Counted from the first letter of the stretch, positions 1,282-29,589 are shown. The stretch is 32,000 nt of DNA from Ruminococcus albus 7 = DSM 20455 (GCF_000179635.2 NC_014824.1:240001-272000), one strand, 5' to 3'. Numbers and translations are program-made. The notes: generated by a model not told the origin, from the sequence alone.

Positions 1282-1307
1282 AGAGTGTGACACGCGTGAC
1301 ACACTCT
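1282..1307. promoter_or_regulatory. Solitary variant of the double GTGWCAC site (AGAGTGTGACAC-GC-GTGACACACTCT)
   Basis: Same two 7-bp GTGWCAC palindromes 9 bp apart as in the 1941-7160 array, here with extended symmetric arms. Lies 33 nt after the DHH gene stop. Confidence 0.5.
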
Positions 1308-1379
1308 AATACCAAAAATGCGATCAAATTATTAAAGTAATTTACAGTGGAATCTTTTTTATCTATTCCAATTTCCTTG

Positions 1380-1417
1380 TATAATTATATTAGTAGTAAC
1401 TACTGATAATTGGAGTC
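1380..1417 (+). promoter_or_regulatory. Candidate promoter (-10 TATAAT 1380-1385) plus conserved leader motif TGATAATTGGAGTC (1404-1417)
   Basis: TATAAT box followed about 18 nt later by the TGATAW-N2-3-GGAGTY motif. That motif recurs downstream of TATAAT boxes at 11866, 20679, 26177 and 28827. Confidence 0.4.
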
Positions 1418-1466
1418 TGTTTCCGAATGCAGATGTTCCAAAATAAATTATACGAGGTGTAATCGA

Positions 1467-1901
1467 ATGGATAAAGTAACGAAGCAAAAAATAAAACACA
1501 CGCTGAGGAAAAACGGGCTAACTATTTTTTTAGGAATCTCTGTAATATTACTAATAATCATCGCGTTAATGAATGTCAGCGTAAAAAAAGAGAAGATCAA
1601 AAAAGAAAAAGTAGCAAGCAATATTTATTATGGCTGCATCAAGACAGAACATGAAGAAAAAGTTCTGGTGATCACCCAGGCGAATTATTTCATCGAAAAT
1701 GAATGCCTTGATGATGGCAGCGGAGAAAAATATAAAGAACTAAATACAATACTATACAAAAGCGGACTCAAACAATATTCAGAAGGGAAATACTCTTTAA
1801 CAGAAGAAATGAATGAGTCTGACTTAGTTCAGATATTAACTGAGAACAATATGGTTTTGGATTTCAAAAACAAGGAATATAATGATTTCTGCAACAGATA
1901 A
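1467..1901 (+). CDS. Small membrane-anchored hypothetical protein
   Basis: ORF 1410-1901. The ATG at 1467 (MDKVTKQK...) is preferred because GAGGTG lies 7 nt upstream. One N-terminal hydrophobic helix (GLTIFLGISVILLIIIALMNV). No recognisable family. Confidence 0.55.
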   Translation: MDKVTKQKIKHTLRKNGLTIFLGISVILLIIIALMNVSVKKEKIKKEKVASNIYYGCIKTEHEEKVLVITQANYFIENECLDDGSGEKYKELNTILYKSGLKQYSEGKYSLTEEMNESDLVQILTENNMVLDFKNKEYNDFCNR

Positions 1902-1910
1902 TTCAGAAGA

Positions 1911-1938
1911 AAAGCTCATCGATAGATGGGCTTTTTTT
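1911..1938 (+). terminator. Rho-independent terminator
   Basis: AAAGCTCATC / GATGGGCTTT stem with one mismatch, GATA loop and a T7 tract, directly after the stop at 1901. Confidence 0.7.
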
Positions 1939-1940
1939 AT

Positions 1941-4900
1941 TGTGTCACGCGTGACACACTTAGATCAGGTGGATTACGTCCGTTAATTAGAGTGGATTTT
2001 GTCCGTTAATTCAAAGCTAAACTGCTTGAAATTCTGCTTTTCGACTTAATCTGTGTCACGAGTGACACACTCAGATCAGTTGGATTTCATACGTTAGTTA
2101 AGATGGATTGTATCCGTTAATTCGGGCCTTGCTAATATTATGGAGAGTGGATTTTATCTGTTAAATCAAAACTGAAATGCCCGAAATACTGCTTTTCAAC
2201 TTAGTCTGTGTCACGAGTGACACACTCAGAGAGGGTGGATTTCATACGTTAATTCGAGTCTTGCTAGTATTATGGAGAGTGGATTTTGTCCGTTAATTCA
2301 AAGCTAAACTGCCTGAAATTCTGCTTTTCGACTTAATCTGTGTCACGAGTGACACACTCAGAGAGGGTGGATTTCATACGTTAATTCGAGTCTTGCTAGT
2401 ATTATGGAGAGTGGATTTTGTCCGTTAATTCAAAACTGAAATGCCCGAAATACTGCTTTTCAACTTAGTCTGTGTCACGAGTGACACACTCAGAGAGGGT
2501 GGATTTCATACGTTAATTCGAGTCTTGCTAGTATTATGGAGAGTGGATTTTGTCCGTTAATTCAAAACTGAAATGCCCGAAATACTGTTTTTCAACTTAG
2601 TCTGTGTCACGAGTGACACACTCAGAGAGAGTGGATTTCATACGTTAATTCGAGTCTTGCTAGTATTATGGAGAGTGGATTTTGTCCGTTAATTCAAAAC
2701 TGAAATGCCCGAAATACTGCTTTTCAACTTAGTCTGTGTCACGAGTGACACACTCAGAGAGAGTGATTTCATACGTTAATTCGAGTCTTGCTAGTATTAT
2801 GGAGAGTGGATTTTGTCCGTTAATTCAAAACTGAAATGCCCGAAATACTGCTTTTCAACTTAGTCTGTGTCACGAGTGACACACTCAGAGAGAGTGGATT
2901 TCATACGTTAATTCGAGTCTTGCTAGTATTATGGAGAGTGGATTTTGTCCGTTAATTCAAAACTGAAATGCCCGAAATACTGCTTTTCAACTTAGTCTGT
3001 GTCACGGGTGACACGCTCGAAACCAGGAAGTTAGATCATCGCATAGATGGATTGCGACCGTTAATTCAAAATTTAAACTCCCCAAATACTGCTTTTCAAA
3101 TCAGTTTGTATCACTGGTGACACGCTCGAATTCAATACATCTGATCATTGCATAGGTGGATTGCATCCGTTAATTCAAGAGTGAAATACACAGAAATACT
3201 GCTTTCAGCTTTGTTTGTGTCACACGTGACACAATTGAAGCAGAATAATGCTGCGGGTGGATTATATCCGTTAGTTGAGATGGATTCTATCCGTTAATTA
3301 GAGGCTTGCTTGTATTTTGAATGTGGATTGTATCCGTTAATTCAAAACAGAAACTCCCGAAACACTTCGTTTCAACTTAGTTTGTGTCACGCGTGTCACA
3401 CTTAGATCAGGTGGATTACGTCCGTTAATTAGAGTGGATTTCATACGTTAGTTAAGATGGATTGCATCCGTTAATTCGGGTCTTGCTAGTATTATGGAGA
3501 GTGGATTTTGTCCGTTAATTCAAAACAGAAACTCCCCCAAATACATCATTTCAGAATAATTTGTGTCACCCGTGACACAGTCAGATGAGGTGAATTGCGT
3601 CCGTTAATTCAAGAATGAAATACACAGAAATGTTGCTTTCAGCTTTGTTTGTGTCACGCGTGTCACAATCGAAACTATTGAATCAGAATAATGCTGCGGG
3701 TGGATTGTATCCGTTAATTCAAAACAGAAACGCATGAAAATACTACTTTTCAGATTAGTCTGTGTCACGGGTGACACGATCGAAACCAGGAAGTTAGATC
3801 GTCGCATAGATGGATTTCGCTCGTTAATTCAAAATTCAAACGCCCAAAAATACTGCTTTTCAAATCAGTTTGTATCACTGGTGACACGCTCGAATTCAAG
3901 ACATCTGATCATTGCATAGTGGATTGCATCCATTAATTGAAGTGAAATTTGTCCGTTAATTCTAGAGTGAAATACACAGAAATGCTGCTTTCAGCTTTGT
4001 TTGTGTCACGAGTGTCACACTCAGATCAGGTGGATTGTATCCGTTAATTAGAATTTTGAAGCTTGCCTATCATGGATTACGTCCGTTAATTCAAAGCTAA
4101 ACTGCCTGAAATTCTGCTTTTCAACTTAGTCTGTGTCACGAGTGTCACACTTATATCAGTTAGATTACTTCCGTTGATTAGAGTGGATTTCATACGTTAA
4201 TTGAGATGGATTCTATCCGTTAATTCGGGTCTTTCTAGTATTATGAAGAGTGGATTTTGTCCGTTAATTCAAAACTAAAACTCCCCCCAAATACATCATT
4301 TCAGAATAATTTGTGTCACGCGTGACACAATTAAAACAATTGAATCAGAATAATGCTGGTGGATTACATTCGTTAATTGAGATGAATTCTATCCGTTAAT
4401 TAGAGTCTTGCTAGTATTATGGAGAGTGGATTTTATCCGTTAATTCAAAACTATAACTCCCCAAATACTGCGTTTCAGCTTATTTTGTGTCACGCGTGTC
4501 ACACTCAGATCAGATGGGTTGTATCCGTTAATTAGAATTTTTAAGCTTGCCTATCATGGATTACGTCCGTTAATTCAAATTTAAAACTCCCCCAAAATAC
4601 ATCATTTCAGAATAATGCTGGTGGATTTCATACGTTAGTTAAGATGGATTGTATCCGTTAATTCGGGTCTTGCTAGTATTATGGAGAGTGGATTTTGTCC
4701 GTTAATTCAAAACTGAAACTCCCCCAAATACATCATTTCAGAATAATTTGTGTCACGCGTGACACAATTGAAACAATTGAATCAGAATAATGCTGCGGGT
4801 GGATTATATCCGTTAGTTGAGATGGATTCTATCCGTTAATTAGAGTTTTGATACCTTCCTGTCATGGATTTCGCCCGTTAATTCTAAATTAAAACTTCCC

Positions 4901-7160
4901 CAAATACTGCTTTTCAAATCAGTTTGTATCACTGGTGACACGCTCGAATTCAAGACATCTAATCATTGCATAGGTGGATTGTGTCCGTTAATCGAAGTGG
5001 AATTTATCCGTTAATTCAAGAGTGAAATACACAGAAATGCTGCTTTCAGCTTTGTTTGTGTCACGCGTGTCACACTTAGATCAGGTGGATTACGTCCGTT
5101 AATTAGAGTGGATTTCATACGTTAATTGAGATGGATTCTATCCGTTAATTAGAGTTTTGCTAGCATTATGGAGAGTGGTTTGGTCCGTTAATTCAAAACA
5201 GGAACTCCCCCCAAATACATCATTTCAGAATAATTTGTGTCACCCGTGACACAGTCAGATGAGGTGGATTGCGTCCGTTAATTGAAGTGGAATTTGTCCG
5301 TTAATTCAAGAATGAAATACACAGAAATGCTGCTTCAGCTTTGTTTGTGTCACGCGTGACACAATTGAAACAATTGAATCAGAATAATGCTGCGGGTGGA
5401 TTATATCCGTTAATTAGAGCTTTGCTTGTATTATAGAGAGTGGATTTTGTCCGTTAATTCAAATTTAAAACTCCCCCAAATACATCATTTTTTCAGAATA
5501 ATTCTGGTGGATTACATTCGTTAGTTAAGATGAATTCTATCCGTTAATTAGAGTCTTGCTAGTATTATGGAGAGTGGATTTTATCCGTTAATTCAAAACT
5601 ATAACTCCCCAAATACTGCGTTTCAGCTTATTTTGTGTCACGAGTGTCACACTCAGATCAGATGGGTTGTATCCGTTAATTAGAATTTTGAAGCTTGCCT
5701 ATCATGGATTACGTCCGTTAATTCAAATTTAAAACTCCCCCAAATACATCATTTCAGAATAATTTGTGTCACGCGTGACACAATTGAAACAATTGAATCA
5801 GAATAATGCTGCGGGTGGATTATATCCGTTAGTTGAGATGGATTCTATCCGTTAATTAGAGTTTTGATACCTTCCTGTCATGGATTTCGCCCGTTAATTC
5901 TAAATTAAAACTTCCCGAAATACTGCTTTTCAAATCAGTTTGTGTCACTGGTGACACGCTCCAACACAAGAAGTCAGATTATTGCATAGATGAATTTCAT
6001 CCGTTAGATGATGTGGATTCTATCCGTTAATTAAAGTTTTGCTTGTATTATAGAAGGTGGATTTTGTCCGTTAATTCAAAGCTAAACTGCCTGAAATTCT
6101 GTTTTTCAGCTTAGTTTGTGTCACGAGTGTCACACTCAGATCAGGTGGATTGTATCCGTTAAATAGAGTGGATTTCATACGTTAATTGAGATGGATTCTA
6201 TCCGTTAATTCGGGTCTTGCTAGTATTATGGAGAGTGGATTTTGTCCGTTAATTCAAAACTGAAAATCCCCCAAATACATTATTTCAGAATAATTTGTGT
6301 CACCCGTGACACAGTCAGATGAGGTGGATTGCGTCCGTTAATTGAAGTGGAATTTGTCCGTTAATTCAAGAATGAAATACACAGAAATGCTGCTTCAGCT
6401 TTGTTTGTGTCACGCGTGACACAATTGATACAATTGAATCGGAATAATGCTGCGGGTGGATTATATCCGTTAGTTGAGATGGATTCTATCCGTTAATTGG
6501 AGGCTTGCTATTATTTATAAGGTGGATTGTATCCGTTAATTCAAAACAGAAACGCATGAAAATACTGCTTTTCAGATTAGTCTGTGTCACGGGTGACACG
6601 CTCGAATTCAAGACATCTGATCATTGCATAGTGGATTGCATCCATTAATTGAAGTGAAATTTGTCCGTTAATTCTAGAGTGAAATACACAGAAATGCTGC
6701 TTTTCAACTTAGTCTGTGTCACGCGTGTCACACTTATATCAGTTAGATTACGTCCGTTAAATAGAGTGGATTTCATACGTTAATTGAGATGGATTCTATC
6801 CGTATATTAGAGTTTTGCTTGTATTATAGAAGGTGGATTTTGTCCGTTAATTCAATGCTAAACTGCCAGAAATTCTGCTTTTCAACTCAGTTTGTGTCAC
6901 GCGTGTCACACCCAGATCAGGTGGATTACATCCGTTAGTTGAGGTGGATTGTATCCGTTAATTAGAATTTTGGAGCTTTCCTATCATGGATTACGTCCGT
7001 TAATTCAAAACTGTAACGCCCAGAAATACCGCTTTTTAGATTGGCTTGTGTCACGAGTGACACACTTGAAATCTGGAATATTAGATTATTCTACTGGTGG
7101 ATTGCGTCCGTTAGTTGAACGGATTTTATTCGTAAAAGAGGTGGATTTCATCCGTTAGTT
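1941..7160. repeat. 5.2-kb non-coding mosaic array: 35 double palindromes plus about 90 co-oriented iteron-like 20-22-mers
   Basis: Hand-mapped palindrome starts: 1941, 2052, 2207, 2339, 2471, 2603, 2735, 2866, 2997, 3107, 3216, 3383, 3562, 3650, 3761, 3871, 4002, 4132, 4312, 4486, 4749, 4925, 5057, 5236, 5346, 5634, 5765, 5941, 6117, 6296, 6406, 6583, 6715, 6893, 7047. Each is followed by 1-5 copies of (G/A)TGGATTnnnnnCGTTAATT and a conserved tail ...AAATACTGCTTTTCAACTTAGTC. Only three 61-69-aa ORFs fall inside, all within repeats. Confidence 0.95.
2207..2996. repeat. Six near-identical 131-132-bp tandem units inside the array
   Basis: Palindromes at 2207, 2339, 2471, 2603, 2735 and 2866 (next at 2997). 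Each unit is TGTGTCACGAGTGACACA + GTGGATTTCATACGTTAATT + CGAGTCTTGCTAGTATTATGGAGA + GTGGATTTTGTCCGTTAATT + tail. Only a few substitutions or 1-nt indels between copies. Confidence 0.9.
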
Positions 7161-7199
7161 GAATATCGTAAACAGCGGAATTCCGGTCGTTTCAAAGCT

Positions 7200-7319: not shown

Positions 7320-7476
7320 AGAAAGCTCAAACTTGAAGCCTAAGATTCATAGGAGAGATTTCATTATATTATCTATAGCTTCGGTATAGCTAAAGAAACG
7401 AGCTTGTGGACTGTTCCAATATCTTATCAATAGAATAAATTTTTTCTTGATTTTTCTGATAAATTCTGAACAATCA

Positions 7477-7505: not shown

Positions 7506-7680
7506 AAGGCTAGAAATCTATGATATACAAGATGAGCTTACAGTATTTGAAAAAATATTTCAAGCAAGTCTGTCTAAATTATAGACAGGTATCTCATTTA
7601 TTTGTATCTTTACGAAAAACTATGATATATGCTTTTCAATATATCAGATAGCTCAGGTATATTGATAGAGAAGCGTAACT

Positions 7681-7880
7681 GAGTGGATTTCATCCGTTAG
7701 TAGAGTGGTTTTCAACCGTTAATTGAGTGGATTCCATCCGTTAGTATGGTGGTTATCATCCGTTAATTGAGTGGATTTGGGACGTTAGTCGGGTGGTTTT
7801 CAACCGTTAATTGGATGGATTCTATCCGTTAGTAGAGTGGTTTTCAACCGTTAATTGAGTGGATTCGGAACGTTAGTTCA
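7681..7880 (+). repeat. oriV iteron cluster: 9 directly abutting 21-23-bp iterons
   Basis: Alternating GAGTGGATTnnnnCCGTTAGTA and GAGTGGTTTTCAACCGTTAATT types, about 22 bp apart and all in one orientation, 315 bp upstream of the Rep_3-like gene. Classic iteron-origin layout. Confidence 0.8.
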
Positions 7881-7917
7881 GCTTTTGAAACGGATTTATT
7901 TCGGTTGTTTTTAAAAG

Positions 7918-8194: not shown

Positions 8195-9349
8195 ATGTCA
8201 AAGAAAGACGAAAAAACTCAAATATTAGTTGGGTTAGGAGATCCCAAAAAACTGGTGATTCAAAAATCAAAACCATTACTGGATATAGTGAGAATAGGAC
8301 TTCCATTAGATGCGCTCAAGCTTCTCGATGCTTATCTAGCAAAAATTGATACTTATAAGCCAGATAACAAAACTGTCGTATTCGAGGTAAAAGAGTACGA
8401 AGAGATGCTGGGTATCCAGAGACTCCGAACAGAAGTCCTAGACGCTAATCTTGATAAATTGCTTAATCACGTGATTACGCTAAAAAACACTGCCAACGAC
8501 GAAGATGATGATGTAATAAAAATCAACTTGTTTCAAATGGCTAGAAGAAGAATCAACAAAGAAACCCGAATGGGTGAGATAGTGCTGGTTTGTAATGACG
8601 TGGCTAAAGATTTTATTTTCAAATTAGATGATATTAAATACATCAAATATAATCTTGAAGATATAATCAAATTAAATTCAAGATATAGTTACACGTTATT
8701 TTTATACTTAAAAGACAATTTGTATAAAAAAACATGGACTATTAGTTATCCTGAGTTGAAGGTCAGATTAGGATGCGAATCATCGAGATATTCTATGTTC
8801 AGTTATCTAAAAAATGATATCCTCAACCCCTGTAAGAAAGAAATAGAAAGCAAAACAGGTGTCCGCTTCACTTTCGAGCCTATAAGGAAAAACCGCTCTG
8901 TAATTGCTGTAACATTCACGGCTTCGGAAGTCAAAGGTCTTACTGACAAAAAGAAGACTGGTAAGATGGTAGATACTGATAAAATGGTAGATGTTGAATC
9001 AAGTAAATCTGCATCTACTGTACCGGTTGATAATAATGAGGAAAAAGACTGGAAAGCTTTCTATGGTTCATCTGTCCTTGCAGGACTGGCTGAGCAATGT
9101 GAATACACGTTTTCTAAGAAAGAAATGCAGCTTATCCATGCTCTCCTAAAAAAGATAAATATATCGCCGGCTGAAGGAGACAGAACGGGTACATGTAGAT
9201 TCGGAAGGGAAGCGTATTTACAGGAAAAGTATCTGCGTCTGTGTCAGGAAGAAGAAAATAAAGCGAAAAACGGTGAATCTATCACTAACCGTTTTGCGTA
9301 TTTAAGAAAAATGCTTGAAAATGAAGCAGAAGAAGATTCAGATGAATAA
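8195..9349 (+). CDS. Plasmid replication initiator, Rep_3/RepB-like (iteron-binding)
   Basis: 384-aa ORF with AAAGGA SD. The N-terminal pattern (...VIQKSKPLLDIVRIGLPLDALKLLDAYLAKIDTYKP...VFEVKEYEEMLGI) resembles winged-helix Rep_3 initiators. It sits directly downstream of the tandem iterons and the AT-rich tract. Confidence 0.7.
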   Translation: MSKKDEKTQILVGLGDPKKLVIQKSKPLLDIVRIGLPLDALKLLDAYLAKIDTYKPDNKTVVFEVKEYEEMLGIQRLRTEVLDANLDKLLNHVITLKNTANDEDDDVIKINLFQMARRRINKETRMGEIVLVCNDVAKDFIFKLDDIKYIKYNLEDIIKLNSRYSYTLFLYLKDNLYKKTWTISYPELKVRLGCESSRYSMFSYLKNDILNPCKKEIESKTGVRFTFEPIRKNRSVIAVTFTASEVKGLTDKKKTGKMVDTDKMVDVESSKSASTVPVDNNEEKDWKAFYGSSVLAGLAEQCEYTFSKKEMQLIHALLKKINISPAEGDRTGTCRFGREAYLQEKYLRLCQEEENKAKNGESITNRFAYLRKMLENEAEEDSDE

Positions 9350-9421: not shown

Positions 9422-11404
9422 TTGGCAGCATCATACGACAATAACAGTATAAGTTCTCTTAAAGGAGCTGACAGAGTAAGAAAAAGACCCGGTGTTATTT
9501 TTGGCTCTAACGGTCTTGAAGGAGCTCAGCATGCTTATTTTGAGATACTGTCCAATTCCATTGATGAAGCCAAAGATGGGTACGGCAGCAAGATCACAAC
9601 TATTCTGTATGAAGATGGTTCTATAAGCGTCCAGGATCACGGTCGAGGCATTCCACTTGAATTCAATAAAACCGAAAATCGCTATAACTGGGAGCTCGTT
9701 TACTGCGAACTTTACGCAGGAGGAAAATACGATGTTGACGGAGCTAATTATGAGTACAGTCTGGGGCTTAACGGTCTTGGAGCTTGTGCAACTCAGTATG
9801 CAAGCGAGTATTTCGATGTGGAAGTTGTCCGGGATGGCTATAAATATAACCTTCACTTTGAAAAAGGTGAGAATATAGGTGGACTTGTAAAAAAGAAATT
9901 GAAATCAAAATCAGAAACCGGTACATTCCAGAAATGGAAGCCTGATCTTGAGGTATTTACGGATACAAATATCACTTATGAATATTTGCTTGATGTAAAC
10001 AAAAAACAGGCTATGGTCAATAAGGGCATAACCTTCTGCATCATGGACCAGTCTTCTGATACAAACACTGAGTATTACTATGAAAACGGAATAATTGACT
10101 ATATAGAAGAAATTTCCGACGGTAAAAATATTTCTTCTCCGTATTATATCGAGGGCTCCGGAACAGGAAGGGATAGGGAAGACCTTAAAGAGTACAAGGT
10201 CAAAGCCGAGATCGCTTTTGCTTTCAATAACGATGTACCTACCCTTCAGTATTACCACAATTCAAGCTTTCTTGAACACGGCGGAGCTCCAGATAAAGCG
10301 GTAAAGTCAGCTTTTGTAGCTGTTTTTGATAAGATTCTCAAGCAAAGAGGAAAGTATAATAAAGGCGAGACTAAAATTAGCTTTGCTGATATAGAAGACA
10401 GTCTTATAGTCATCGTAAACAGTCTTTCGACAATGACAAGCTACGAGAATCAGACCAAAAAGGCTATAAACAATAAATTTATCCAGGATTTTCTCACCGA
10501 ACTGATCAAAGAAAGACTGGAAATATGGTTTATTGAAAATGCCGGCGATTCCAACAGGGTGATCGACCAGATACTTGCAAATAAAAGAAGCAGGGAAGCC
10601 TCCGAAAAGCAAAGAATCGCACTGAAAAGAAAACTTGTAGGCAAGAGTGATTCTTGGGACAGAGTAAAGAAATTTGTAGACTGCAAGTCTAAAGATACTT
10701 CCATAAGAGAATTATTTATTGTTGAAGGTGATTCAGCTCTCGGTTCGGTAAAGATGGGCAGAGATTCAGAATTTCAAGCAGTAATGCCTGTAAGAGGAAA
10801 GATACTTAACTGCCTGAAATCGGATATTTCAAAAATTGTCAGCAGCGATATAATAATGGATCTGATAAAAGTGCTTGGCTGCGGTATAGAAATACCGATA
10901 AAAACACCCAAGAGGGGAGTCCTCTCTTTCGATATAAACAACCTGAAATGGAATAAGATAATAATCTGTACAGATGCCGATGTTGATGGATTTCAGATAA
11001 GAACTCTGATACTGACTATGATCTACAGATTATGTCCGACTCTTATAGAAGAAGGATACGTTTATATCGCTGAAACTCCACTGTACGAAATGAGATATAA
11101 AACGAGAGCTAATGAGGAAACGTTCTTCGCTTTCGATGAAAAAGAAAAAAACAAGATAATGAAAGGAAAAGATCCTTCAAGATTCTTTATTCAGCGTTCA
11201 AAAGGACTTGGCGAAAATACTGCGGAATTTATGTGGCTCACTACGATGGATCCTAAAACAAGACGTCTTATAAGGGTTACATCTGAGGATGCAAAAAAAA
11301 TGCTTGAGTACTTTGAATTATACCTTGGAAATAATGTAGCTGCAAGAAAAAGCTACATAGAAGAAAACGGACATCTATACACTGATGATCTTGATCTCGA
11401 TTAA
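9422..11404 (+). CDS. Type IIA DNA topoisomerase, subunit B (GyrB/ParE-like)
   Basis: TTG start 8 nt after AGGAGA. Motifs: VRKRPGVIFGS, EILSNSIDEA (ATPase N-box), DHGRGIP, GLNGLGA, Toprim EGDSALGS, PVRGKILN, IICTDADVDGFQIRTLILT. Confidence 0.9.
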   Translation: MAASYDNNSISSLKGADRVRKRPGVIFGSNGLEGAQHAYFEILSNSIDEAKDGYGSKITTILYEDGSISVQDHGRGIPLEFNKTENRYNWELVYCELYAGGKYDVDGANYEYSLGLNGLGACATQYASEYFDVEVVRDGYKYNLHFEKGENIGGLVKKKLKSKSETGTFQKWKPDLEVFTDTNITYEYLLDVNKKQAMVNKGITFCIMDQSSDTNTEYYYENGIIDYIEEISDGKNISSPYYIEGSGTGRDREDLKEYKVKAEIAFAFNNDVPTLQYYHNSSFLEHGGAPDKAVKSAFVAVFDKILKQRGKYNKGETKISFADIEDSLIVIVNSLSTMTSYENQTKKAINNKFIQDFLTELIKERLEIWFIENAGDSNRVIDQILANKRSREASEKQRIALKRKLVGKSDSWDRVKKFVDCKSKDTSIRELFIVEGDSALGSVKMGRDSEFQAVMPVRGKILNCLKSDISKIVSSDIIMDLIKVLGCGIEIPIKTPKRGVLSFDINNLKWNKIIICTDADVDGFQIRTLILTMIYRLCPTLIEEGYVYIAETPLYEMRYKTRANEETFFAFDEKEKNKIMKGKDPSRFFIQRSKGLGENTAEFMWLTTMDPKTRRLIRVTSEDAKKMLEYFELYLGNNVAARKSYIEENGHLYTDDLDLD

Positions 11405-11924: not shown

Positions 11925-12001
11925 TACGGCATAATTCAAAGAATCAATGAACAGGTAAATGCAGCACTTCAGAAACTTATACATGGATCCGAAAGACAGA
12001 A

Positions 12002-12057
12002 ATTCATAATGAATGTTAATATTCAACGTTGACATTACAAAATGTTAATGGTATAAT
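12002..12057 (+). promoter_or_regulatory. Consensus promoter with two palindromes (ATTCATAATGAAT; CAACGTTG overlapping -35)
   Basis: TTGACA (12029-12034), 17-nt spacer, TGg-TATAAT (12049-12057). About 59 nt match 18619-18677 with about 5 mismatches. Confidence 0.7.
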
Positions 12058-12094
12058 ATATATATTATTATTATTAGGTAATGGAGGAGTATCA

Positions 12095-12541
12095 ATGCCA
12101 TTTTTGCTAGATGAATCCAACGAAATGTACAATTCTGATAATTACTATTTTTATTCCAAACATCGTTCAAAAGTAAATAAAGTTGCAAGTGTGTGGCTTA
12201 TTGATTTAAAAGAAGAGTTTTCTTTATGTGAAGATGCAATAAAAAAAAGATATCTGCAGGACGATTTTAAATCTGATAACAAAAGATTTGCATATAATTT
12301 AAAGCGAACATCAAATAAACTTGCTATTTTAGGCGAAAGCAATTCTAATGCTAAACATTATGGATTAATAATAGCAAAATTCAACAATGATATTGAAAAG
12401 AGAATATGGCATGGGTATCCAGCAGATTATATAGCTAATCAGCAAGATAAACCTAATGACAGTATACTAAAAGAAATGATAAAAAAAAATTTGATAACTC
12501 CACGTGAAATGAATAAAATTAAAAGAGGACTAAAAATATGA
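12095..12541 (+). CDS. Hypothetical protein (148 aa), first gene of the uncharacterised cassette
   Basis: The ATG at 12095 (MPFLLDES...) is preferred over the track start 12029 because GGAGG lies 7 nt upstream and 12029-12057 is the promoter. Its stop overlaps the next start (ATGA). No assignable family; contains a RIWHGYPADY string. Confidence 0.7.
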   Translation: MPFLLDESNEMYNSDNYYFYSKHRSKVNKVASVWLIDLKEEFSLCEDAIKKRYLQDDFKSDNKRFAYNLKRTSNKLAILGESNSNAKHYGLIIAKFNNDIEKRIWHGYPADYIANQQDKPNDSILKEMIKKNLITPREMNKIKRGLKI

Positions 12542-13767
12542 CAGAAGACAATGATTTTATAAAGAAAGTTATCATACCAGGCGTATATTGGGATAGTTTC
12601 ATATACAAAAAATGGCTTATTCTCATCGGTATGGATGGAACAATCAAATCATATAACTGGGAAAAAATAATTCTAGATGAAATAAGTGATTCTAATGATT
12701 CATTAGCGTATAAATGTGCCTTTCTTCAAGGCAATAATCTGTACGGCATTAATTCCCGAACTCTCATATTACAAGATAAAGAATTCAAAGATTTATTAAG
12801 ACAAAAATTCAAACGAATTAGAGATATTGAAATTTCCGCAGATAAGCTAAATAAATATGCTGCATATAAAAAAGAAGTCGTATTAAATAATCTTACAACT
12901 GATATAGGAATTTATAAAGATACGTTTTATTATTGCAATTCTGATGGTGTGTTTTGCAATGCCCTCAACCCTAGAAATGTCAATTATATGTCAAAAAACT
13001 CAAAAAAACTCTGGGATGGTAATGTTCAAAATCTTCAAGTGGGAAAATACGGTACAATAATCATGTCTGCTTCTTCGGATGGTCTATTTGATTTAACTAA
13101 TAATGATTATATTATTGATTATGATGAATACGATGAATACTATTCAAGTTTTGGTGGAAAGAAGATAGAAAAGAATATTCATCAGATAAGTTCAAAGCAT
13201 TCTTCTTATTGTTCCTGGTCATTCTCAAGTGTATTTAGTGGTTCGTTTATTGATGAGTGTTATTTGATTGCTACAAAATACGAAATCCAAAATGATTATA
13301 AAAAAAAATTAGGAATAATAAAAACTGAAAACGATATTTTTGAAACAAAAAACGAAAATTCTTATGTATTTAGCAATAATGATAAATTCTATCGTTTATC
13401 TACGCAAAAAATAGAGAAAGTTAACTTCTATGTGAAAGATATAAACGTAAATCCATTCAAAAAAAAAGAAGAAAAGAATATTACTTTTGAAGATGAAATT
13501 ATCAATTCTGCGGTTACTGACTTTGGTCTAATAGTTGAAACATCAAGGCACCTGCTTGTATTTTTAAGTAATGAAGAAGTAATTAATATTGCAGACAATG
13601 ATAACGAAGAATTTATCACATGGCGAACTTTTCCTCGTTCAAAATGTTATATTAACCAAATTCACATTGTATATAATGATCGAATAGAAATAGTGTCTAT
13701 CAACTCTGATTATTTCGTTGATCAAAATAGAAAATTTTTTGGAAATAGTTATCATGAAACAAAGTGA
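12538..13767 (+). CDS. Hypothetical protein (409 aa), second gene of the uncharacterised cassette
   Basis: Long uninterrupted ORF in very AT-rich DNA, translationally coupled to 12095-12541. Asn/Lys/Tyr-rich with no catalytic motif recognised. A repeated-beta (propeller-like) fold is only a guess. Confidence 0.75.
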   Translation: MTEDNDFIKKVIIPGVYWDSFIYKKWLILIGMDGTIKSYNWEKIILDEISDSNDSLAYKCAFLQGNNLYGINSRTLILQDKEFKDLLRQKFKRIRDIEISADKLNKYAAYKKEVVLNNLTTDIGIYKDTFYYCNSDGVFCNALNPRNVNYMSKNSKKLWDGNVQNLQVGKYGTIIMSASSDGLFDLTNNDYIIDYDEYDEYYSSFGGKKIEKNIHQISSKHSSYCSWSFSSVFSGSFIDECYLIATKYEIQNDYKKKLGIIKTENDIFETKNENSYVFSNNDKFYRLSTQKIEKVNFYVKDINVNPFKKKEEKNITFEDEIINSAVTDFGLIVETSRHLLVFLSNEEVINIADNDNEEFITWRTFPRSKCYINQIHIVYNDRIEIVSINSDYFVDQNRKFFGNSYHETK

Positions 13768-13911
13768 ATCAAAGGTATATAAAGTCTAAATAAAATTGAT
13801 TATACGTACACGACAAGATTCTCTTTTTGAAGGTAGGGCAGGTTTAACATTTTAAATCTACCTCGTTGGTGTAATACAGCAATTATTCAGGGATTGTTGG
13901 CAGAAAATAAA

Positions 13912-22955: not shown

Positions 22956-23268
22956 TCCTTTTATGGCTTTATGTTCTTGATTTTAAATTCTTTAGTGTTG
23001 TATTAGTAGTATTATTTGATCTGTCTGACCTCCAGTTATTAATTATTATCTACAATACTATTATACAAGAAAATTAGTAATAATATAAATAGTGCTTTAT
23101 TATCCAAATCCACTGTATTTTAGCCACTCCATTTTATTCGACTGAATATTTTATGCTATGAGTAAAGTGAAAAGTTCAATGAGTAAGAAACGTAATTCAT
23201 CTCCCACCTAAGAGGTGGGAGTCTTCTTGCTTAAAGAGGATTAAAAAAGCAAAACCGATAGCAGAATA

Positions 23269-23297
23269 TTGACAAAAATTATTTTTTTGTGTATAAT
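23269..23297 (+). promoter_or_regulatory. Consensus promoter TTGACA-17-TATAAT upstream of the subunit A gene
   Basis: -35 at 23269-23274, -10 at 23292-23297. Located 28 bp from the LE terminus of the TnpB element. Confidence 0.7.
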
Positions 23298-23322
23298 ATT
23301 TGCGATGGTACTTGAACTGCTT

Positions 23323-23340
23323 TGTGTCACGCGTGACACA
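23323..23340. promoter_or_regulatory. Solitary perfect palindrome TGTGTCACGCGTGACACA (operator or parS-like site)
   Basis: Identical to array units. Centred about 30 nt downstream of the -10 box, in a roadblock or operator position. Confidence 0.6.
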
Positions 23341-23372
23341 AAGTATTTGCAATGAGACGTTAAAATTAAAAG

Positions 23373-23397
23373 GGGAGTCCTAAAGACTCTCTTTTTT
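23373..23397 (+). terminator. Intrinsic terminator-like hairpin within the subunit A leader
   Basis: GGGAGTC-CTAAA-GACTCTC (7 bp including one G-U pair) followed by T6. Lies about 95 nt after the predicted TSS and 94 nt before the ATG. Confidence 0.55.
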
Positions 23398-23429
23398 ACT
23401 ATATATAATTTTTTTTCTATGATAAAATC

Positions 23430-23438
23430 TGCTATAAT
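23430..23438 (+). promoter_or_regulatory. Second, extended -10 promoter (TGcTATAAT) proximal to the subunit A gene
   Basis: TGCTATAAT at 23430-23438 with an A/T-rich upstream region and no clear -35. Confidence 0.4.
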
Positions 23439-23490
23439 ACTATACAGAAACAATATTTTCTATACATAAATATTTTTAAGGAGAATAAAA

Positions 23491-25680
23491 ATGCCGAGAA
23501 AAAAAGCGGAAACTGCTGTTATTGACAGGACCGGTTATGATGAGCACATGAGAGACATAGTTGTATCAGAAGTTCTGACAGAAAACTATATGCCTTATGC
23601 CATGAGTGTTATAAAATCGAGAGCGCTGCCGGAGATAGACGGATTTAAGCCTGCACACAGAAAACTTCTGTATACAATGTATCAGATGAAGCTTTTTGAT
23701 AAAAAGACGAAATGTGCCAATATTGTTGGTCAGACCATGCAGTATAACCCACACGGAGACTCCAGTATCTACGAAACACTCGTAAGATTGACCGAAGATA
23801 ATGAATCCTTGCTTACTCCTCTTATTTCTTCTAAAGGCAATTTCGGTAAGCACTATTCAAGAGATATGGCTTATGCAGCATACAGATACACAGAGGCAGG
23901 ATTTACAAAGATAGCAGCAGAGTTATTTGAGGGTATAAACAAAAACGCCGTAGACATGGCAGATAACTTCGATGCTACAAAGAAAGAACCTGTGCTTCTG
24001 CCAACAAGCTTTCCTAATATACTCGCTATGCCTACTCTGGGAATAGCTGTCGGCATGGCTTCCAATATTGCATCCTTCAACCTTAAAGAACTGTGCGAAG
24101 CTACTATCGAGTATATAAAGGATCCTAAAACAGATATTCTGGATATTATGCCCGGCCCTGATTTTTCTACCGGGGGAGACATCCTGTTTGATCGAGATGA
24201 AATGGACAAGATCTACAGAACAGGGAAGGGGAGTATCGTTGTAAGGAGCAAATATACAGTCGATAAGAAAAACAGAAGAATTGAGATAAGAGAGATTCCA
24301 TATAGTACGACTACCGAAGCTATCATCGAAAATGTTATAAGCCTGTGTAAAAGCAAAAGAATAATGGACATCGATGATATAAGAGACGATACTGATAAAA
24401 ACGGACTTCTTATCACTATTGAGTATAAGAGATCAGCTGACCCTGACGAGATCATGAATAAGCTTTACAGTCTGACTCCGCTTCAGGACACCTTCAGCTG
24501 CAACTTCACAATGCTTATAAACAATAATCCTGTTGTTCTTGGAGTATACGGTATACTCGATGAATGGATAAAGTTCCGTACTGAATGCATCAAGAGAGAG
24601 CTTACATATGATCTTGAAATATTCAGAAAGAAACTCCATCTTATGGAAGGCCTACAGAAGATCCTTTTAAATATCGATAAGGCAATTAAGATCATACGCG
24701 GTACAAAACTGGATAAGGATGTTATCCCCAACTTGATGAAAGGCTTTGATATAGACAAGACTCAGGCTGAATACATCACAGAAATAAGACTCAGAAACAT
24801 AAACGAGGAATGGATCCTTGACAGAACAAAGGAAATCGAGAAAATAAAAGAAGATATAAAGAAAAATGAAACGATAATAAGCAGTGATAAAGCCCTGAAA
24901 AAGCAAATAATCAAGAAACTGAAGGAAATAGCAAATAAAGAGGATTATATCAAACCCAGAAAAACAACTATCAATACGGAAGTTAAGGTTGAAAAAGTAA
25001 CTGTAATTGAAGAAGTGAAAAATTATGATGTAAAGATCATAATTAGTGAACACGGATACGTCAAGAAAGTTCCCACAAGTACGTATAAGGAAGATACAGA
25101 GTATAAGCTGAAAGACGATGATCGTATCCTAAAGATCATAGACGCTCAGAACATCGGAGAAGTACTTACCTTTACTGATAAAGGTGTAGTCTATAAAACA
25201 AAGATCAGCGATATAGAAGTTTGCAAAGCGGGAGAATTTGGAACATTTATCCGTTCTGCAGCCGAAATACCCGACGATGAAAAAACTGTCTTTATAACAG
25301 CAACAGGAGATTTCTCGGGTAACATGATAGTTGTTTTCGAGAATGGTAAAGTTGCGAAGTTCCCGTTAAACGTTTATGAGACAAAACAGAACAGAAAAAA
25401 ACTGATAAATGCCTTTTATACGAACGTAAAGCCCGTCGCATTCTATCATGTTCTTGAAGACGTCAATATAAAGATGAAGAGCGATGGCGGAAAGCTGCTG
25501 ATCTTTAATTCAGAAATGATAAATCTAAAGAATTCAAAGACAACACAAGGAACTCAGGTAATGAAGCTTCCAAAGGAAACAAAGATCCTAAAGTCTAGGA
25601 TCATTGAGGAACTTGATAAAAAAAGCAGTAAAATAGTAGTGAAAAGCATCCCTGCAAGTGGTTTTTCAAGAAAGAAATAA
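23491..25680 (+). CDS. Type IIA DNA topoisomerase, subunit A (GyrA/ParC-like, short C-terminal domain)
   Basis: YMPYAMSVIKSRALPEIDGFKPAHRKLLYTMY, NPHGDSSIYETLVRL, catalytic-Tyr motif AAYRYTEAG. 729 aa. No QRRGGKG-type GyrA box seen in the C-terminal part. Confidence 0.9.
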   Translation: MPRKKAETAVIDRTGYDEHMRDIVVSEVLTENYMPYAMSVIKSRALPEIDGFKPAHRKLLYTMYQMKLFDKKTKCANIVGQTMQYNPHGDSSIYETLVRLTEDNESLLTPLISSKGNFGKHYSRDMAYAAYRYTEAGFTKIAAELFEGINKNAVDMADNFDATKKEPVLLPTSFPNILAMPTLGIAVGMASNIASFNLKELCEATIEYIKDPKTDILDIMPGPDFSTGGDILFDRDEMDKIYRTGKGSIVVRSKYTVDKKNRRIEIREIPYSTTTEAIIENVISLCKSKRIMDIDDIRDDTDKNGLLITIEYKRSADPDEIMNKLYSLTPLQDTFSCNFTMLINNNPVVLGVYGILDEWIKFRTECIKRELTYDLEIFRKKLHLMEGLQKILLNIDKAIKIIRGTKLDKDVIPNLMKGFDIDKTQAEYITEIRLRNINEEWILDRTKEIEKIKEDIKKNETIISSDKALKKQIIKKLKEIANKEDYIKPRKTTINTEVKVEKVTVIEEVKNYDVKIIISEHGYVKKVPTSTYKEDTEYKLKDDDRILKIIDAQNIGEVLTFTDKGVVYKTKISDIEVCKAGEFGTFIRSAAEIPDDEKTVFITATGDFSGNMIVVFENGKVAKFPLNVYETKQNRKKLINAFYTNVKPVAFYHVLEDVNIKMKSDGGKLLIFNSEMINLKNSKTTQGTQVMKLPKETKILKSRIIEELDKKSSKIVVKSIPASGFSRKK

Positions 25681-25841
25681 AGAATTACTTTAATTGGAGA
25701 AGATAAAAAGCCTGCAATATCAACAGAAATCTTCGGAGACTATATACTTGTAACAACAGACAAGGGAGAAAAAATACTTACGAGCGGAACAATGGTTATA
25801 ATCTACGAAGACAAATATTATTATGAAGAGGAGAATAATAA

Positions 25842-26000
25842 ATGACCAGTAAGCAGTTTGATGAGATCATAAAGGAAAATAAAGAGCTGATAGAAAAGGC
25901 TTTCCCGGACGAATATACTCCTGTTGAAGAGATAATCGAGCAGAAAGAAAAGTATGAGGTTATTGTGAAGGGGAAAGATAAGACAGACTCCGAAGCGTAA
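25842..26000 (+). CDS. Small hypothetical protein (52 aa; below the ORF-track cutoff)
   Basis: ATG at 25842 preceded by GAGGAGA. MTSKQFDEIIKENKELIEKAFPDEYTPVEEIIEQKEKYEVIVKGKDKTDSEA. Followed by the hairpin AGCTCTC...GAGAGCT. Confidence 0.4.
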   Translation: MTSKQFDEIIKENKELIEKAFPDEYTPVEEIIEQKEKYEVIVKGKDKTDSEA

Positions 26001-26059
26001 TATAATTATCTGATAAAACGACAAAGCTCTCTCGTCACTAATAGGATGGGAGAGCTATT

Positions 26060-26077
26060 TGTGTCACGCGTGACACA
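26060..26077. promoter_or_regulatory. Solitary perfect palindrome TGTGTCACGCGTGACACA
   Basis: Lies between a terminator-like hairpin (26026-26056) and the promoter of the 26229 operon. Confidence 0.6.
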
Positions 26078-26153
26078 AATAATGAAAAATCAAGATACGA
26101 TAAAAGTCCTTGCAAATTTTTGCAGGGATTTTTTATTGGAGCGAATTTTACCA

Positions 26154-26203
26154 TATAATATATTTGAGATCTTTTATGATAATCTGGAGTTATATAAGAT
26201 CTG
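26154..26203 (+). promoter_or_regulatory. -10 box plus diverged copy of the AGATCTT...AAGATCTGAAT leader hairpin
   Basis: TATAAT at 26154-26159. GAGATCTT (26166-26173) pairs with AAGATCTG (26196-26203). The loop carries TGATAATCTGGAGTT. Confidence 0.45.
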
Positions 26204-26228
26204 AATATTATTAACGGAGGAAAAAAAC

Positions 26229-26801
26229 ATGTCAGCAATAGCAAATGAATTACTAGAAAAGGAGATAATTCGACTTAGAGAAGAAAACAGGAAAATCAAT
26301 GACCAGCTGAATTTCGTGTGTAAAAACAGAGAGGTTATTCAGAAGTCCTATGCAGCATTGGAAAAAAAGTACAATGAATTTGTTGCCAATGCTACGGAAA
26401 TTAATATGGGACTGCTTCATGTTCATACAAACGATAAAGGTAATCCCGGTGTATTTGTTACCTATGATGCATTAAATTCAGTAAATGGTACAGAAATAGA
26501 ACGACAGGCTGCAGTACTTGTTGAGTATAATAAAGAAAGCGGTAGAATACAGGTATTCACTTATGATAGGTATTCGGATGACCCTATAAATTCTTACGAA
26601 ATAGATACAAATTTAAGAGAAACGGCAGCTGAATGCAGACGTAGGATAGCGGAATGCGAGGCAGTTCTCAATGAGGCTTATAAGGAAGAATATCCTGAGG
26701 AGTTTTTAACAGTAATGGAAGAAGCCGAACTCAAAGATGACATAAAGCAATGCGAAGAATACTGCAAAAGATTCACAAAGCTTACAGGAGAAGAAGCTTA
26801 A
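26229..26801 (+). CDS. Hypothetical protein (190 aa, N-terminal coiled-coil-like)
   Basis: GGAGG SD. First gene of a tightly packed nine-gene operon. No motif recognised. Confidence 0.65.
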   Translation: MSAIANELLEKEIIRLREENRKINDQLNFVCKNREVIQKSYAALEKKYNEFVANATEINMGLLHVHTNDKGNPGVFVTYDALNSVNGTEIERQAAVLVEYNKESGRIQVFTYDRYSDDPINSYEIDTNLRETAAECRRRIAECEAVLNEAYKEEYPEEFLTVMEEAELKDDIKQCEEYCKRFTKLTGEEA

Positions 26802-26822
26802 ATAATCAAAAGGAGTACTAAT

Positions 26823-27023
26823 ATGAAAATCAATAACGAAAAAATAAAGAAAGCACTATTTAACAGCGGAACATTAGCGGTGGAAGACTTCTGTGGTATG
26901 GATCTGTCAGGCTATGATAAAGAATCTATTGATAAGATTATGGATGAGGTGATAGATCAAATGCCTGATGATACACTTGAAGAGTATTACAAAATCTACG
27001 TGATCGATGCTGAAAAGGAGTAA
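26823..27023 (+). CDS. Small acidic hypothetical protein (66 aa)
   Basis: AAGGAG SD. About 17 D/E versus 8 K/R residues by hand count. Confidence 0.55.
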   Translation: MKINNEKIKKALFNSGTLAVEDFCGMDLSGYDKESIDKIMDEVIDQMPDDTLEEYYKIYVIDAEKE

Positions 27024-27025
27024 TA

Positions 27026-27343
27026 ATGGATACATTTCAAAAAAATTGTCCTGTTTGCGGAAGCAAAGAATATGGATACGAATCTTATTCTGAATTTGGA
27101 TGGGGCAGTGTGGAGCAGCATGGCTACTGCGATAAATGCGGCTATACAATAGAACAGGCTTATTCACCTGTCTACGAATTCTTCAGTGACTTGCGCAAAG
27201 GATATAAGGATATGGGCGGAACTTATCACGAAAAGAACGTAGTAAGACATAAAAGAATTCGCAGGAAACATTGGGATAACGCCAAAAGAATTCTTGCGAA
27301 AGAACCAAGGATAAACCCTTATATTATGTTTCAATGGTTTTAA
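27026..27343 (+). CDS. Zinc-ribbon hypothetical protein (105 aa)
   Basis: CPVCGSKEY ... CDKCGY (CxxC...CxxC) and a basic C-terminus (HKRIRRKH). Confidence 0.6.
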   Translation: MDTFQKNCPVCGSKEYGYESYSEFGWGSVEQHGYCDKCGYTIEQAYSPVYEFFSDLRKGYKDMGGTYHEKNVVRHKRIRRKHWDNAKRILAKEPRINPYIMFQWF

Positions 27344-27358
27344 GAAAGGAAGAAAATT

Positions 27359-27874: not shown

Positions 27875-27894
27875 ATTATAACGGAGGATTTAAA

Positions 27895-28215: not shown

Positions 28216-28239
28216 ATAAAAGTACGGAGGAAAAAATCT

Positions 28240-28746: not shown

Positions 28747-28752
28747 TCTTAT

Positions 28753-28781
28753 ACTCTCCCGATGGTTCGGGGGAGTTTTTG
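28753..28781 (+). terminator. Intrinsic terminator or attenuator inside the operon
   Basis: ACTCTCCC-GATGGTTC-GGGGGAGT 8-bp stem followed by TTTTT. Confidence 0.6.
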
Positions 28782-28802
28782 TTATTATATCGAAAAATCA
28801 GA

Positions 28803-28841
28803 TATAATGATTATAGGTGTATTTACTGATAATTCGGAGTT
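28803..28841 (+). promoter_or_regulatory. Internal -10 box plus conserved leader motif TGATAATTCGGAGTT
   Basis: TATAAT at 28803-28808. TACTGATAATTCGGAGT (28824-28840) is nearly identical to 1401-1416. Confidence 0.4.
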
Positions 28842-28869
28842 CAAAAACGTAAAAACGGAGGTATTACTA

Positions 28870-29289
28870 ATGGAAAAATTTTCAAGCAGCAATTATATAA
28901 GCAAAAAATACGGTATTGAAGCAGGAAGTACAGTATATGTAGTTCGTGAACATCTGTATTATCTTCCTGGCGATCCTATTCCCAAACAGGAATTTTGCAT
29001 TTACGAAGCGCAGATAGAGTATTTCAGAAAAGGCGGATACACTGATTTCAAAACGAAAATAACAAAGCCTGCCTTGCAGAACAACATTGATTTTTTCAAA
29101 CTGACCAATCTTAATAACAATTTTGTTTTTTCTGATAAAAGAAGTGCTGCACTTTTTGCAAAAGAACTTACAGATAAATTTGAAGCGAAAAGTTATAGGA
29201 AAAATTGCCCGATGATGAGAAGGACATGGGCTGTTTATCTAGAAGACGATAAGAAAGAGGGAGAAATGAATGAAAAACCAAAAATGTGA
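28870..29289 (+). CDS. Hypothetical protein (139 aa)
   Basis: The ATG at 28870 (MEKFSSSNY...) with GGAGG 9 nt upstream is preferred over the track start 28762, which would span the terminator and promoter. Confidence 0.6.
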   Translation: MEKFSSSNYISKKYGIEAGSTVYVVREHLYYLPGDPIPKQEFCIYEAQIEYFRKGGYTDFKTKITKPALQNNIDFFKLTNLNNNFVFSDKRSAALFAKELTDKFEAKSYRKNCPMMRRTWAVYLEDDKKEGEMNEKPKM

Positions 29290-29491
29290 TTACTGCAGCG
29301 GTGGGGAAGTCCTTATAGGAGAAACTACAGAAATGAAAGTATTTGTTGATGCCGGAAGTACAGGTGAAGCCAGAACGATAAAGGTAGAAAGTATGCCTTG
29401 TCCTGAGAATGCTTTTTGCGGTATGAATGGAATACCTTCCAGAGGAGTGTTTTTGATCAATTACTGTCCGATGTGTGGACGGAAGCTTTAA
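29270..29491 (+). CDS. Cys-rich zinc-ribbon-like protein (73 aa)
   Basis: CDYCSGG ... CPENAFC ... CPMCG. Overlaps the previous ORF by 20 nt. GAGGGAGA SD. Confidence 0.55.
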   Translation: MKNQKCDYCSGGEVLIGETTEMKVFVDAGSTGEARTIKVESMPCPENAFCGMNGIPSRGVFLINYCPMCGRKL

Positions 29492-29507
29492 AGGAGCTTA
29501 ATAGGAA

Positions 29508-29535
29508 AGGGCTGTTGATGTGCAGCTCTTTTTTT
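29508..29535 (+). terminator. Rho-independent terminator of the operon
   Basis: AGGGCTG-TTGATGTG-CAGCTCT stem followed by T7. Confidence 0.65.
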
Positions 29536-29571
29536 GTGGGGGAGGGGAGTTGTTTGAAATTTGTGTCACGC

Positions 29572-29589
29572 GTGACACAAAATCACTTA
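29572..29589. promoter_or_regulatory. Solitary perfect palindrome TGTGTCACGCGTGACACA
   Basis: Lies 37 nt after the operon terminator, flanked by TTT/AAA like the copy at 26060. Confidence 0.6.

Follow-up and report, generated by a model that had tools for sequence, protein, structure and literature searches.

Dispersed parS sites and a ParB operator at the protein's own promoter are well known from plasmid RK2, from N15 and from bacterial chromosomes. In the 32,000-nucleotide stretch of Ruminococcus albus 7 DNA analysed here at its full length (NC_014824.1:240001-272000, hereafter the window), an arrangement of this kind is built from an 18-base-pair (bp) palindrome, TGTGTCACGCGTGACACA, which occurs in a 5-kb array next to a replication origin and, in addition, as solitary intergenic copies. 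The original prediction for this DNA had proposed that the solitary copies form either a dispersed centromere or a replicon-wide operator. Judged by sequence comparison, the palindrome is most likely the parS of a Spo0J-type ParB, which is encoded beside ParA on the same megaplasmid, outside the window; the solitary copies are very probably additional sites at which this ParB docks. New with respect to the described systems are the sequence of the site and a spacing series with 0, 1 or 2 bp between canonical-like half-sites, the use of the site by several kinds of rumen mobile elements, its strict intergenic placement and the interleaving of the array with iterons. A full-text literature search with the motif sequence returned nothing relevant.

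The closest protein relatives are those of the chromosomal Spo0J/ParB-parS systems. Their half-site (TGTTCCAC/TGTTTCAC) resembles the one found here (TGTGTCAC), and in both cases the sites extend over tens of kb near an origin; here, however, two extra bp separate the half-sites, the carrier is a Rep3/iteron plasmid and coding sequence is strongly avoided. The IncC-KorB system of RK2/RP4 with its OB sites likewise combines a ParB-family protein with a short palindrome at many intergenic places, one set of which is located at its own operon (PMC3597684, PMC11790492). As in RK2, the sites could serve both partition and regulation. In contrast to KorB, the ParB considered here is Spo0J-like, its site is 18 bp long, a palindrome whose 7-bp arms enclose a 2-bp centre, instead of the 13-bp TTTAGCSGCTAAA, a 35-copy array interleaved with iterons is present, and a KorA/TrbA-like partner was not found. 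The sopC centromere of F shares the tandem array, whose units each contain a 16-bp inverted repeat, TGGGACCACGGTCCCA, made of two 7-bp arms around a 2-bp centre (PMC3597684). It differs in that it consists of 12 units of 43 bp, has neither internal iterons nor solitary copies, and belongs to the type Ia proteins SopA/SopB.

Ravin and Lane (1999, as cited in PMC3597684) are reported to have described dispersed centromere sites of N15; like these, the solitary copies are single palindromic sites scattered among transcription units. N15 has SopAB homologues and no array, whereas the element studied here is without phage features: no structural or lysis genes were found with PHROGs and the 18-mer has no IMG/VR match, so that a phage origin was rejected. 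The analogy with N15 drawn in the original prediction holds for the parS-like behaviour and the orthologous conservation of the sites, but not for the proteins. Membership in the Sop-type centromeres of N15 and F was dismissed, as ParA has 257 amino acids (aa) and, among solved structures, ParB comes closest to Spo0J and Noc, not to SopB. The mycobacteriophage L5 stoperators are asymmetric 13-mers that are bound by the phage repressor in short intergenic gaps, some of them downstream of promoters. Common to both is the occurrence of many copies of one short intergenic site at which a bound protein could block elongation; the site described here, however, is a palindrome linked to ParB. On chromosome 2 of Vibrio cholerae, the single ParB site parS2-B lies within the iteron-controlled origin region ori2, where partition is coupled to the initiator. 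A ParB site amid iterons is thus a shared feature, while here about 35 putative parS copies alternate with about 60 iterons over 5 kb.

A motif search over the whole window located the following solitary sites, the array and the adjoining origin (L109 is a contig of a sister strain):

1286-1303, no strand assigned: degenerate solitary site TGTGACACGCGTGACACA, one mismatch, with half-sites of the direct type GTGACAC-GC-GTGACAC
23323-23340, no strand assigned: solitary parS-like site 1, within a 24-bp palindrome (23320-23343); a transcript started by the promoter at 23269 would contain it at about +19 to +36
26060-26077, no strand assigned: solitary parS-like site 2, within a 24-bp palindrome (26057-26080), at the crossover point of the gain or loss of a 3.2-kb module relative to L109
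29562-29579, no strand assigned: solitary parS-like site 3, within a 22-bp palindrome (29560-29581), 117 nucleotides (nt) upstream of a promoter at 29696-29723, with a mosaic junction at its left edge
1941-7064, plus strand: non-coding 5-kb array of about 35 palindromes interleaved with about 60 Rep3 iterons TGGATTnnnnnCCGTTAA, the iterons all in one orientation
7676-7866, plus strand: origin iterons with a 22-bp period, upstream of rep
8195-9349, plus strand: Rep3-family initiator with Rep3_N and Rep3_C domains, followed by a gyrB-like gene at 9422-11404

With up to three mismatches, TGTGTCACGCGTGACACA gives 36 matches where 0.02 are expected from 100 dinucleotide shuffles, and GTGWCACNNGTGWCAC with at most one mismatch gives 39 (0.01 expected); isolated GTGWCAC heptamers, i.e. 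single half-sites, were found nowhere else in the window. All four solitary sites are intergenic, and the recurrence exceeds chance, as the earlier view had it. The exact copies at 23323-23340 and 26060-26077 are present as originally given, while the third, placed at 29572-29589, was listed 10 nt too high. The variant had been assigned to 1282-1307. Its type and its location after the DHH gene are as described, but the 18-mer itself occupies 1286-1303 within a 30-bp inverted repeat (1280-1309), between the DHH gene and a gene for a 144-aa protein. Its single mismatch turns inverted half-sites into direct ones, and it is absent from the related locus L053, where the DHH and 144-aa genes abut. 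The three exact solitary copies have longer arms in common, forming the palindrome TTTGTGTCACGCGTGACACAAA of 22-24 bp. The centre dinucleotide is GC in all solitary copies and GA, GC, GG, CC, TG or AC in the array.

Within the array, 25 of the 35 palindromes are of the inverted and 10 of the direct type. Each palindrome is followed by one to three origin-type iterons, and 60 nt invariably separate the last iteron from the next palindrome; the arrays of relatives are built from tidier 153-bp units (L053, L068 and L109 compared). In L068, where Rep is only 56% identical and GyrB 92%, the iterons of both origin and array are changed to TGGATTnnAnnGGTACCTAT and the palindrome is unchanged. Since the iterons covary with Rep and the palindrome does not, the array iterons are Rep sites, and the palindrome is read by a factor other than Rep. 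An identity of the palindrome as a Rep3 iteron is ruled out by this lack of covariation and by its absence from the origin iteron run. A physical coupling of copy control and partition through the alternation of palindromes and iterons is possible. Searches against Pfam, PHROGs and the PDB revealed no DNA-binding fold among the unannotated proteins of the window or in two proteins of 390 and 86 aa encoded upstream of it.

ParB emerged from the genomic company of the motif. A scan with the bare 18-mer over species-representative genomes and over metagenomes returned 18 and 51 loci, respectively; most are rumen Ruminococcus-like DNA, and a few resemble chance hits in unrelated high-GC organisms. 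Across all motif-bearing loci compared, the only recurring families are ParB and ParA. Four diverged parA-parB operons were found by the motif alone, each with an exact site at the operon edge:

L020 and L073: site within a few nt of the parB stop codon
L057: site 27 nt past the parB stop codon
L047: two copies of the site upstream of parA

The ParBs of these operons carry ParB_N and ParB-type helix-turn-helix (HTH) domains and are between 27-37% and 72% identical. Altogether, a site at or next to a parAB operon is found in independent lineages (L020, L073, L057, L047, L096, L097, L099 and L103-L106). A 257-269-aa AAA_31/CbiA/ParA protein is encoded directly upstream of parB in L047, L057, L096, L097 and L103-L106, and in L073 a 269-aa open reading frame (ORF) in the same position matches other ParAs by tblastn. 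A ParB profile built from the motif-linked operons retrieved 192 homologues, mostly from Ruminococcus. The association also holds in the reverse direction: P0006, a ParB picked by protein homology alone, has two exact sites upstream of its parA, and further sites at the P0006 loci lie upstream of a CI-like gene and of a phd/PIN operon.

The ParB that we assign to the replicon of the window, P0121, is Spo0J/Noc-like (best PDB match 1vz0, E 8e-15; relatives also 6sdk and 4umk) and has the 257-aa ParA as its partner. The half-site TGTGTCAC is one base away from a canonical parS half such as TGTTCCAC (PMC3597684). Around the ParB lineages P0026, P0045 and P0065 the same half-sites are found with a 1-bp instead of a 2-bp spacer. 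Hereby the HTH residues KFG..KTI go along with the 2-bp centre and KFD..KTM with the 1-bp centre, while overall identity does not track the spacing (three versus two lineages). This is suggestive of a covariation of site specificity with the DNA-binding domain of ParB, in a small sample. A Spo0J-type ParB would be able to read canonical-like half-sites that are 1 or 2 bp apart, a natural series on how the dimer tolerates spacing. P0026, considered as a candidate for the ParB of the window, is not from the window's strain; it led to the 1-bp-centre variant of the site. Other ParB clades belong to elements that carry SSB, ParA, Lar-like and PBECR4 genes (L110:600-12500, L111, L112, L102). There, the 1-bp-centre variant AGTGTGTCAC(C/G)GTGACACACT is present in 13 copies in 13 kb, nearly all of which begin some 34 nt before a start codon and immediately precede the ribosome-binding site. 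The R. albus plasmid shows this geometry at its parA-proximal site.

P0121 is from R. albus ATCC 27210 and is 99% identical to P0006. For P0121 as well as for the exact Rep and TopoA of the window, the longest record has 420,706 bp; we take it to be the R. albus 7 plasmid pRUMAL01. A plasmid of this name appears in PMC4081043. P0121 co-occurs with genes of the window in the runs SRR4055030/31/34, SRR3925597 and SRR1168528, and about 55 kb separate parAB from rep on a single contig of 387,527 bp in the sister strain (GCA_000526775.1). Contigs near-identical to the window are found in GCA_000621285.1 and in many short-read runs. The parA promoter of P0121, TGCTATAAT, has the same motif as the one ahead of topoA and is flanked by an exact site on either side, the two being 121 bp apart. 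Two segments of the window gave no PLSDB match by megablast and only a 1.2-kb match of 77% in INPHARED; tblastn of ParB against PLSDB returned nothing. The plasmid biology of R. albus, a major cellulose degrader of the rumen, is almost unstudied, and the site provides a concrete parS sequence with a predicted cognate ParB for its large plasmids. It could aid the construction of stable ruminococcal vectors and the assignment of metagenomic contigs to this plasmid or ParB lineage.

The solitary sites are accompanied by the following transcription signals:

23269-23297, plus strand: sigma-70 consensus promoter TTGACA-17-TATAAT, 12/12 match, reading into site 1; conserved in L093 and L109
about 23368-23398, plus strand: strong intrinsic terminator between site 1 and topoA, closing a promoter-palindrome-terminator unit of about 90 nt
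about 23431-23439, plus strand: extended -10 promoter TGCTATAAT, nearer to topoA than the promoter at 23269; its AAAATCTGCTATAAT motif also drives parA in L104
26025-26056, plus strand: hairpin with a 12-bp stem, directly abutting site 2
about 26098-26138, plus strand: intrinsic terminator between site 2 and the promoter of a nine-gene operon
about 29504-29536, plus strand: terminator of the nine-gene operon, 5' of site 3

Site 1 begins 25 nt past the -10 box of the 23269 promoter, which had been taken for the topoA promoter. The consensus promoter is real, but its assignment to topoA is doubtful, because the terminator at about 23368-23398 intervenes and a second promoter, TGCTATAAT, lies nearer to the gene; the latter is likely the topoA promoter. 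Site 2 had been described as lying between a hairpin and the operon promoter. The hairpin does adjoin it, but the terminator at about 26098-26138 had been overlooked. Site 3 indeed follows the terminator of the nine-gene operon. Altogether, the terminators near each site, the second topoA promoter and the breakpoints exactly on the palindrome described below had escaped the first inspection. The palindrome itself was rejected as an intrinsic terminator: no T-run follows the solitary sites, alongside which the true terminators stand as separate structures, and terminator calls on some array copies (minus strand) have weak tails. An end hairpin of an IS200/IS605 element was discarded as well; a TnpB gene lies 368 nt from 23323, but L093 and L109 keep the site without TnpB.

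Between the window and L093, whose TopoA is 92% identical, four elements upstream of topoA are retained: both promoters, the 18-mer and the terminator. The sequence adjoining the 18-mer has diverged, and owing to a 20-nt indel the distance from promoter to site differs (26 nt in the window vs 46 nt in L093). In L109, the sites are found at the same places as in the window, plus one more (orthologue of site 1 at L109:9834). Such invariance of the 18-mer at orthologous positions in diverged intergenic DNA is a sign of purifying selection.

The level at which this selection acts bears on a role of the palindrome in RNA, namely as a hairpin that terminates, stabilises or processes transcripts, or as part of a small RNA from the 23269 promoter. 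The conserved unit of about 90 nt folds well (z = -5), the pairing of the terminator stem at 23368-23398 is kept by compensatory changes in L093, and in related elements the palindrome lies just 5' of ribosome-binding sites. We nevertheless consider an RNA-level role very improbable. No U-tract follows the palindrome, and more than 100 copies of its invariant stem contain not one compensatory change. As 10 of the 35 array copies are of the direct type, with a T-T mismatch in the would-be stem and hence no full hairpin, and as the centre bases vary freely, selection would act on DNA rather than RNA. Moreover, sites occur in untranscribed-looking and convergent gaps, and the association with ParB and the HTH covariation would be left unexplained. 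As a separate matter, the promoter-palindrome-terminator unit at 23269-23398 could give rise to a small RNA or form a leader of topoA that is gated by ParB.

The palindrome also marks junctions between plasmid variants. Window positions 23234-26077 correspond to L109 9744-12587 at 98% identity and positions 26060-27297 to L109 15825-17052 at 85%; since these alignments share nothing but the 18-mer, the 3.2-kb module between two L109 sites is absent from the window. This module (L109:12571-15842) carries a MerR-like and a sigma-70-like gene and is flanked by two copies of the palindrome. When the window, L093, L090 and L024 are aligned, flanks switch at the palindrome of site 2 too, and the left edge of site 3 is a junction as well. 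Breakpoints that fall exactly on the palindrome, together with the integrases present in several motif-bearing loci, would suit dedicated site-specific recombination sites that shuffle gene modules in the manner of pdif or attC. We regard this as improbable, because no recombinase family is consistently adjacent, ParB and ParA being the only families that recur; the site shows full symmetry and has no asymmetric core, and a 35-copy array of active sites would be unstable. Identical repeats of 18-22 bp, or breakage induced by the palindrome, account for the junctions without a dedicated enzyme. In the absence of a consistently linked recombinase we thus read them as a by-product of identical short repeats and palindromes at module borders. 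Besides, an intergenic module of about 250 nt, consisting of the palindrome and a terminator hairpin (AAAGACAGCTAA...TTAGCTGTCTTT), occurs at L068:1-330 and L030:3040-3360 and in L069, L079, L061 and L027. Several contigs that are not otherwise related share it, one of them in inverted orientation; it could be a small cassette, either mobile or recombined.

Two of the sites flank the topoA gene, which encodes the A subunit of a type IIA topoisomerase (23491-25680; gyrB-like gene at 9422-11404). Together with the two-fold symmetry of the site and a 4-bp centre, CGCG, that might correspond to a 4-bp staggered cut, this invites the idea of binding or cleavage sites of the plasmid's topoisomerase, which we hold to be extremely unlikely. 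L047, L057, L073 and L020 carry the palindrome and parAB with no topoisomerase homolog in the DNA obtained, and within the site conservation is lowest at the centre bases.

For the palindrome as parS we propose the following mechanism. The HTH of each ParB monomer would read one GTGWCAC half-site and leave the two centre bases unread. The 5-kb array beside the Rep3 origin would be the main centromere, and the solitary copies would act as additional high-affinity, always-perfect loading sites for ParB over tens of kb around the origin, an organisation known from large replicons and from RK2; in the sister strain, the zone of sites spans at least about 75 kb. ParB loaded at the solitary sites would enlarge the partition complex. 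ParB could, besides, dampen transcription in its vicinity: from the bracketing of the parA promoter by two copies, autoregulation by ParB is likely, and a ParB roadblock to the strong 23269 promoter, at +19, is possible. As identical short repeats at the module borders, the sites also serve as crossover points between plasmid variants.

Several observations weigh against this assignment. The 32-kb window itself contains neither a ParA nor a ParB gene, and the linkage of parAB to its replicon would follow from the 420,706-bp figure, the shared runs and the sister strain. The CTP-pocket motif of ParB is GHHR (or GRHR) and not the canonical GERR, which makes clamp-type spreading uncertain. ParB is found within the DNA obtained in only 4 of 78 motif-bearing loci, as expected for dispersed sites, a fit that is no proof. 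Finally, partition alone does not explain the intergenic bias of the solitary sites: only 9 of the 60 solitary exact sites in low-GC loci lie inside ORFs (called mechanically, at least 100 aa), which account for 76% of the bases, and a chromosomal parS is not bound to stay outside genes.

This bias speaks for a rival reading, replicon-wide silencing operators, at which ParB would act like KorB of RK2 or like the L5 stoperators, with partition relying mainly on the array. Two sites bracket the parA promoter, site 1 occupies +19 to +36 of a promoter with a 12/12 match, and in related elements the 1-bp-spacer variant precedes successive start codons by about 34 nt, 13 times in 13 kb. There is also a precedent, since KorB, a ParB-family CTPase clamp, represses promoters up to 1.5 kb away (PMC11790492). 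A KorB-like regulatory role of the sites is plausible in the light of these placements; that silencing is their principal function is possible, yet we rather doubt it. The orientation classes of the flanking genes equal the background, convergent 3'-3' gaps included, so placement is not directed to promoters. The distance between promoter and site varies (26 vs 46 nt), terminators or stretches of more than 100 nt stand between sites 26060 and 29562 and the promoters closest to them, and the KorA/TrbA-like partner of such a system was not identified. The same evidence divides the operator proposal of the original prediction, a repressor titrated by the array: the bracketed parA promoter fits autoregulation, against which stand the background orientation classes and the unconserved spacing. 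The enrichment at intergenic and promoter-proximal positions for which it had proposed a scan was found, for the 60 sites of the motif-bearing loci, as an intergenic but not as a promoter-specific bias. A wider role of ParB beyond segregation, in which KorB- or stoperator-like silencing is coupled to iteron copy control and the sites double as crossovers for module shuffling, seems rather unlikely to us. It is prompted by the intergenic sites, by their bracketing or following of promoters, by the start-codon spacing of about 34 nt and by the one-to-one alternation with iteron clusters. The palindrome as parS of the plasmid's own ParB remains the reading that we prefer.

The motif extends beyond Ruminococcus-like DNA. 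The same 18-mer is found on five large contigs of one Bacteroidaceae metagenome-assembled genome (L019, L022, L023, L028 and L029), where the copies have their own extended arms, AGCTT...AAGC or GGTTT...AAAC. In L051 and L065, which are metagenome contigs of 53% GC, it is part of 350-bp tandem units. No ParB was found near the Bacteroidaceae, L051 or L065 copies in the DNA obtained.

Left of the window, an operon for proteins of 390 and 86 aa, the DHH phosphoesterase and the 144-aa protein (L036:1-3503; L053:1-6400) is preceded in the window's strain by a further exact site, L036:38-55, about 140 nt upstream; in L053, palindrome arrays lie on both sides of this operon. The 390-, 86- and 144-aa proteins have no family match, and the 390-aa/86-aa pair, considered as a ParM/ParR-like system, is unsupported, with no actin-like motif and no family hit. 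Look-ups with the DHH and 144-aa proteins lead to contigs of about 3.4 kb that break at repeats.

The plasmid encodes its own split type IIA topoisomerase, with the B-subunit gene directly 3' of rep. In the sister strain the A gene is adjacent to B (L109:7244-12190), while here an 11-kb insertion with IS66, TnpB, SUKH and dockerin genes separates the two. Overall, the remaining content of the window comprises IS66 and TnpB elements, SUKH, dockerin and BspA-type leucine-rich repeat (LRR) genes and the nine-gene operon of unknowns. A neighbouring segment at 12000-13800 has 27% GC and encodes proteins of 170 and 409 aa without family match, and the 1.2-kb stretch at 13730-14947 matches a human faecal phage contig without annotation, MT835477.1, at 77% identity. 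Downstream of site 3, the perfect consensus promoter at 29696-29723 precedes a c-di-GMP-I riboswitch (29767-29848, 71.9 bits) and a terminator hairpin (29863-29888) that overlaps the start of a BspA-type LRR gene (29868-30584). The region 29696-29895 thus looks like the control region of a c-di-GMP-controlled surface protein on the plasmid.

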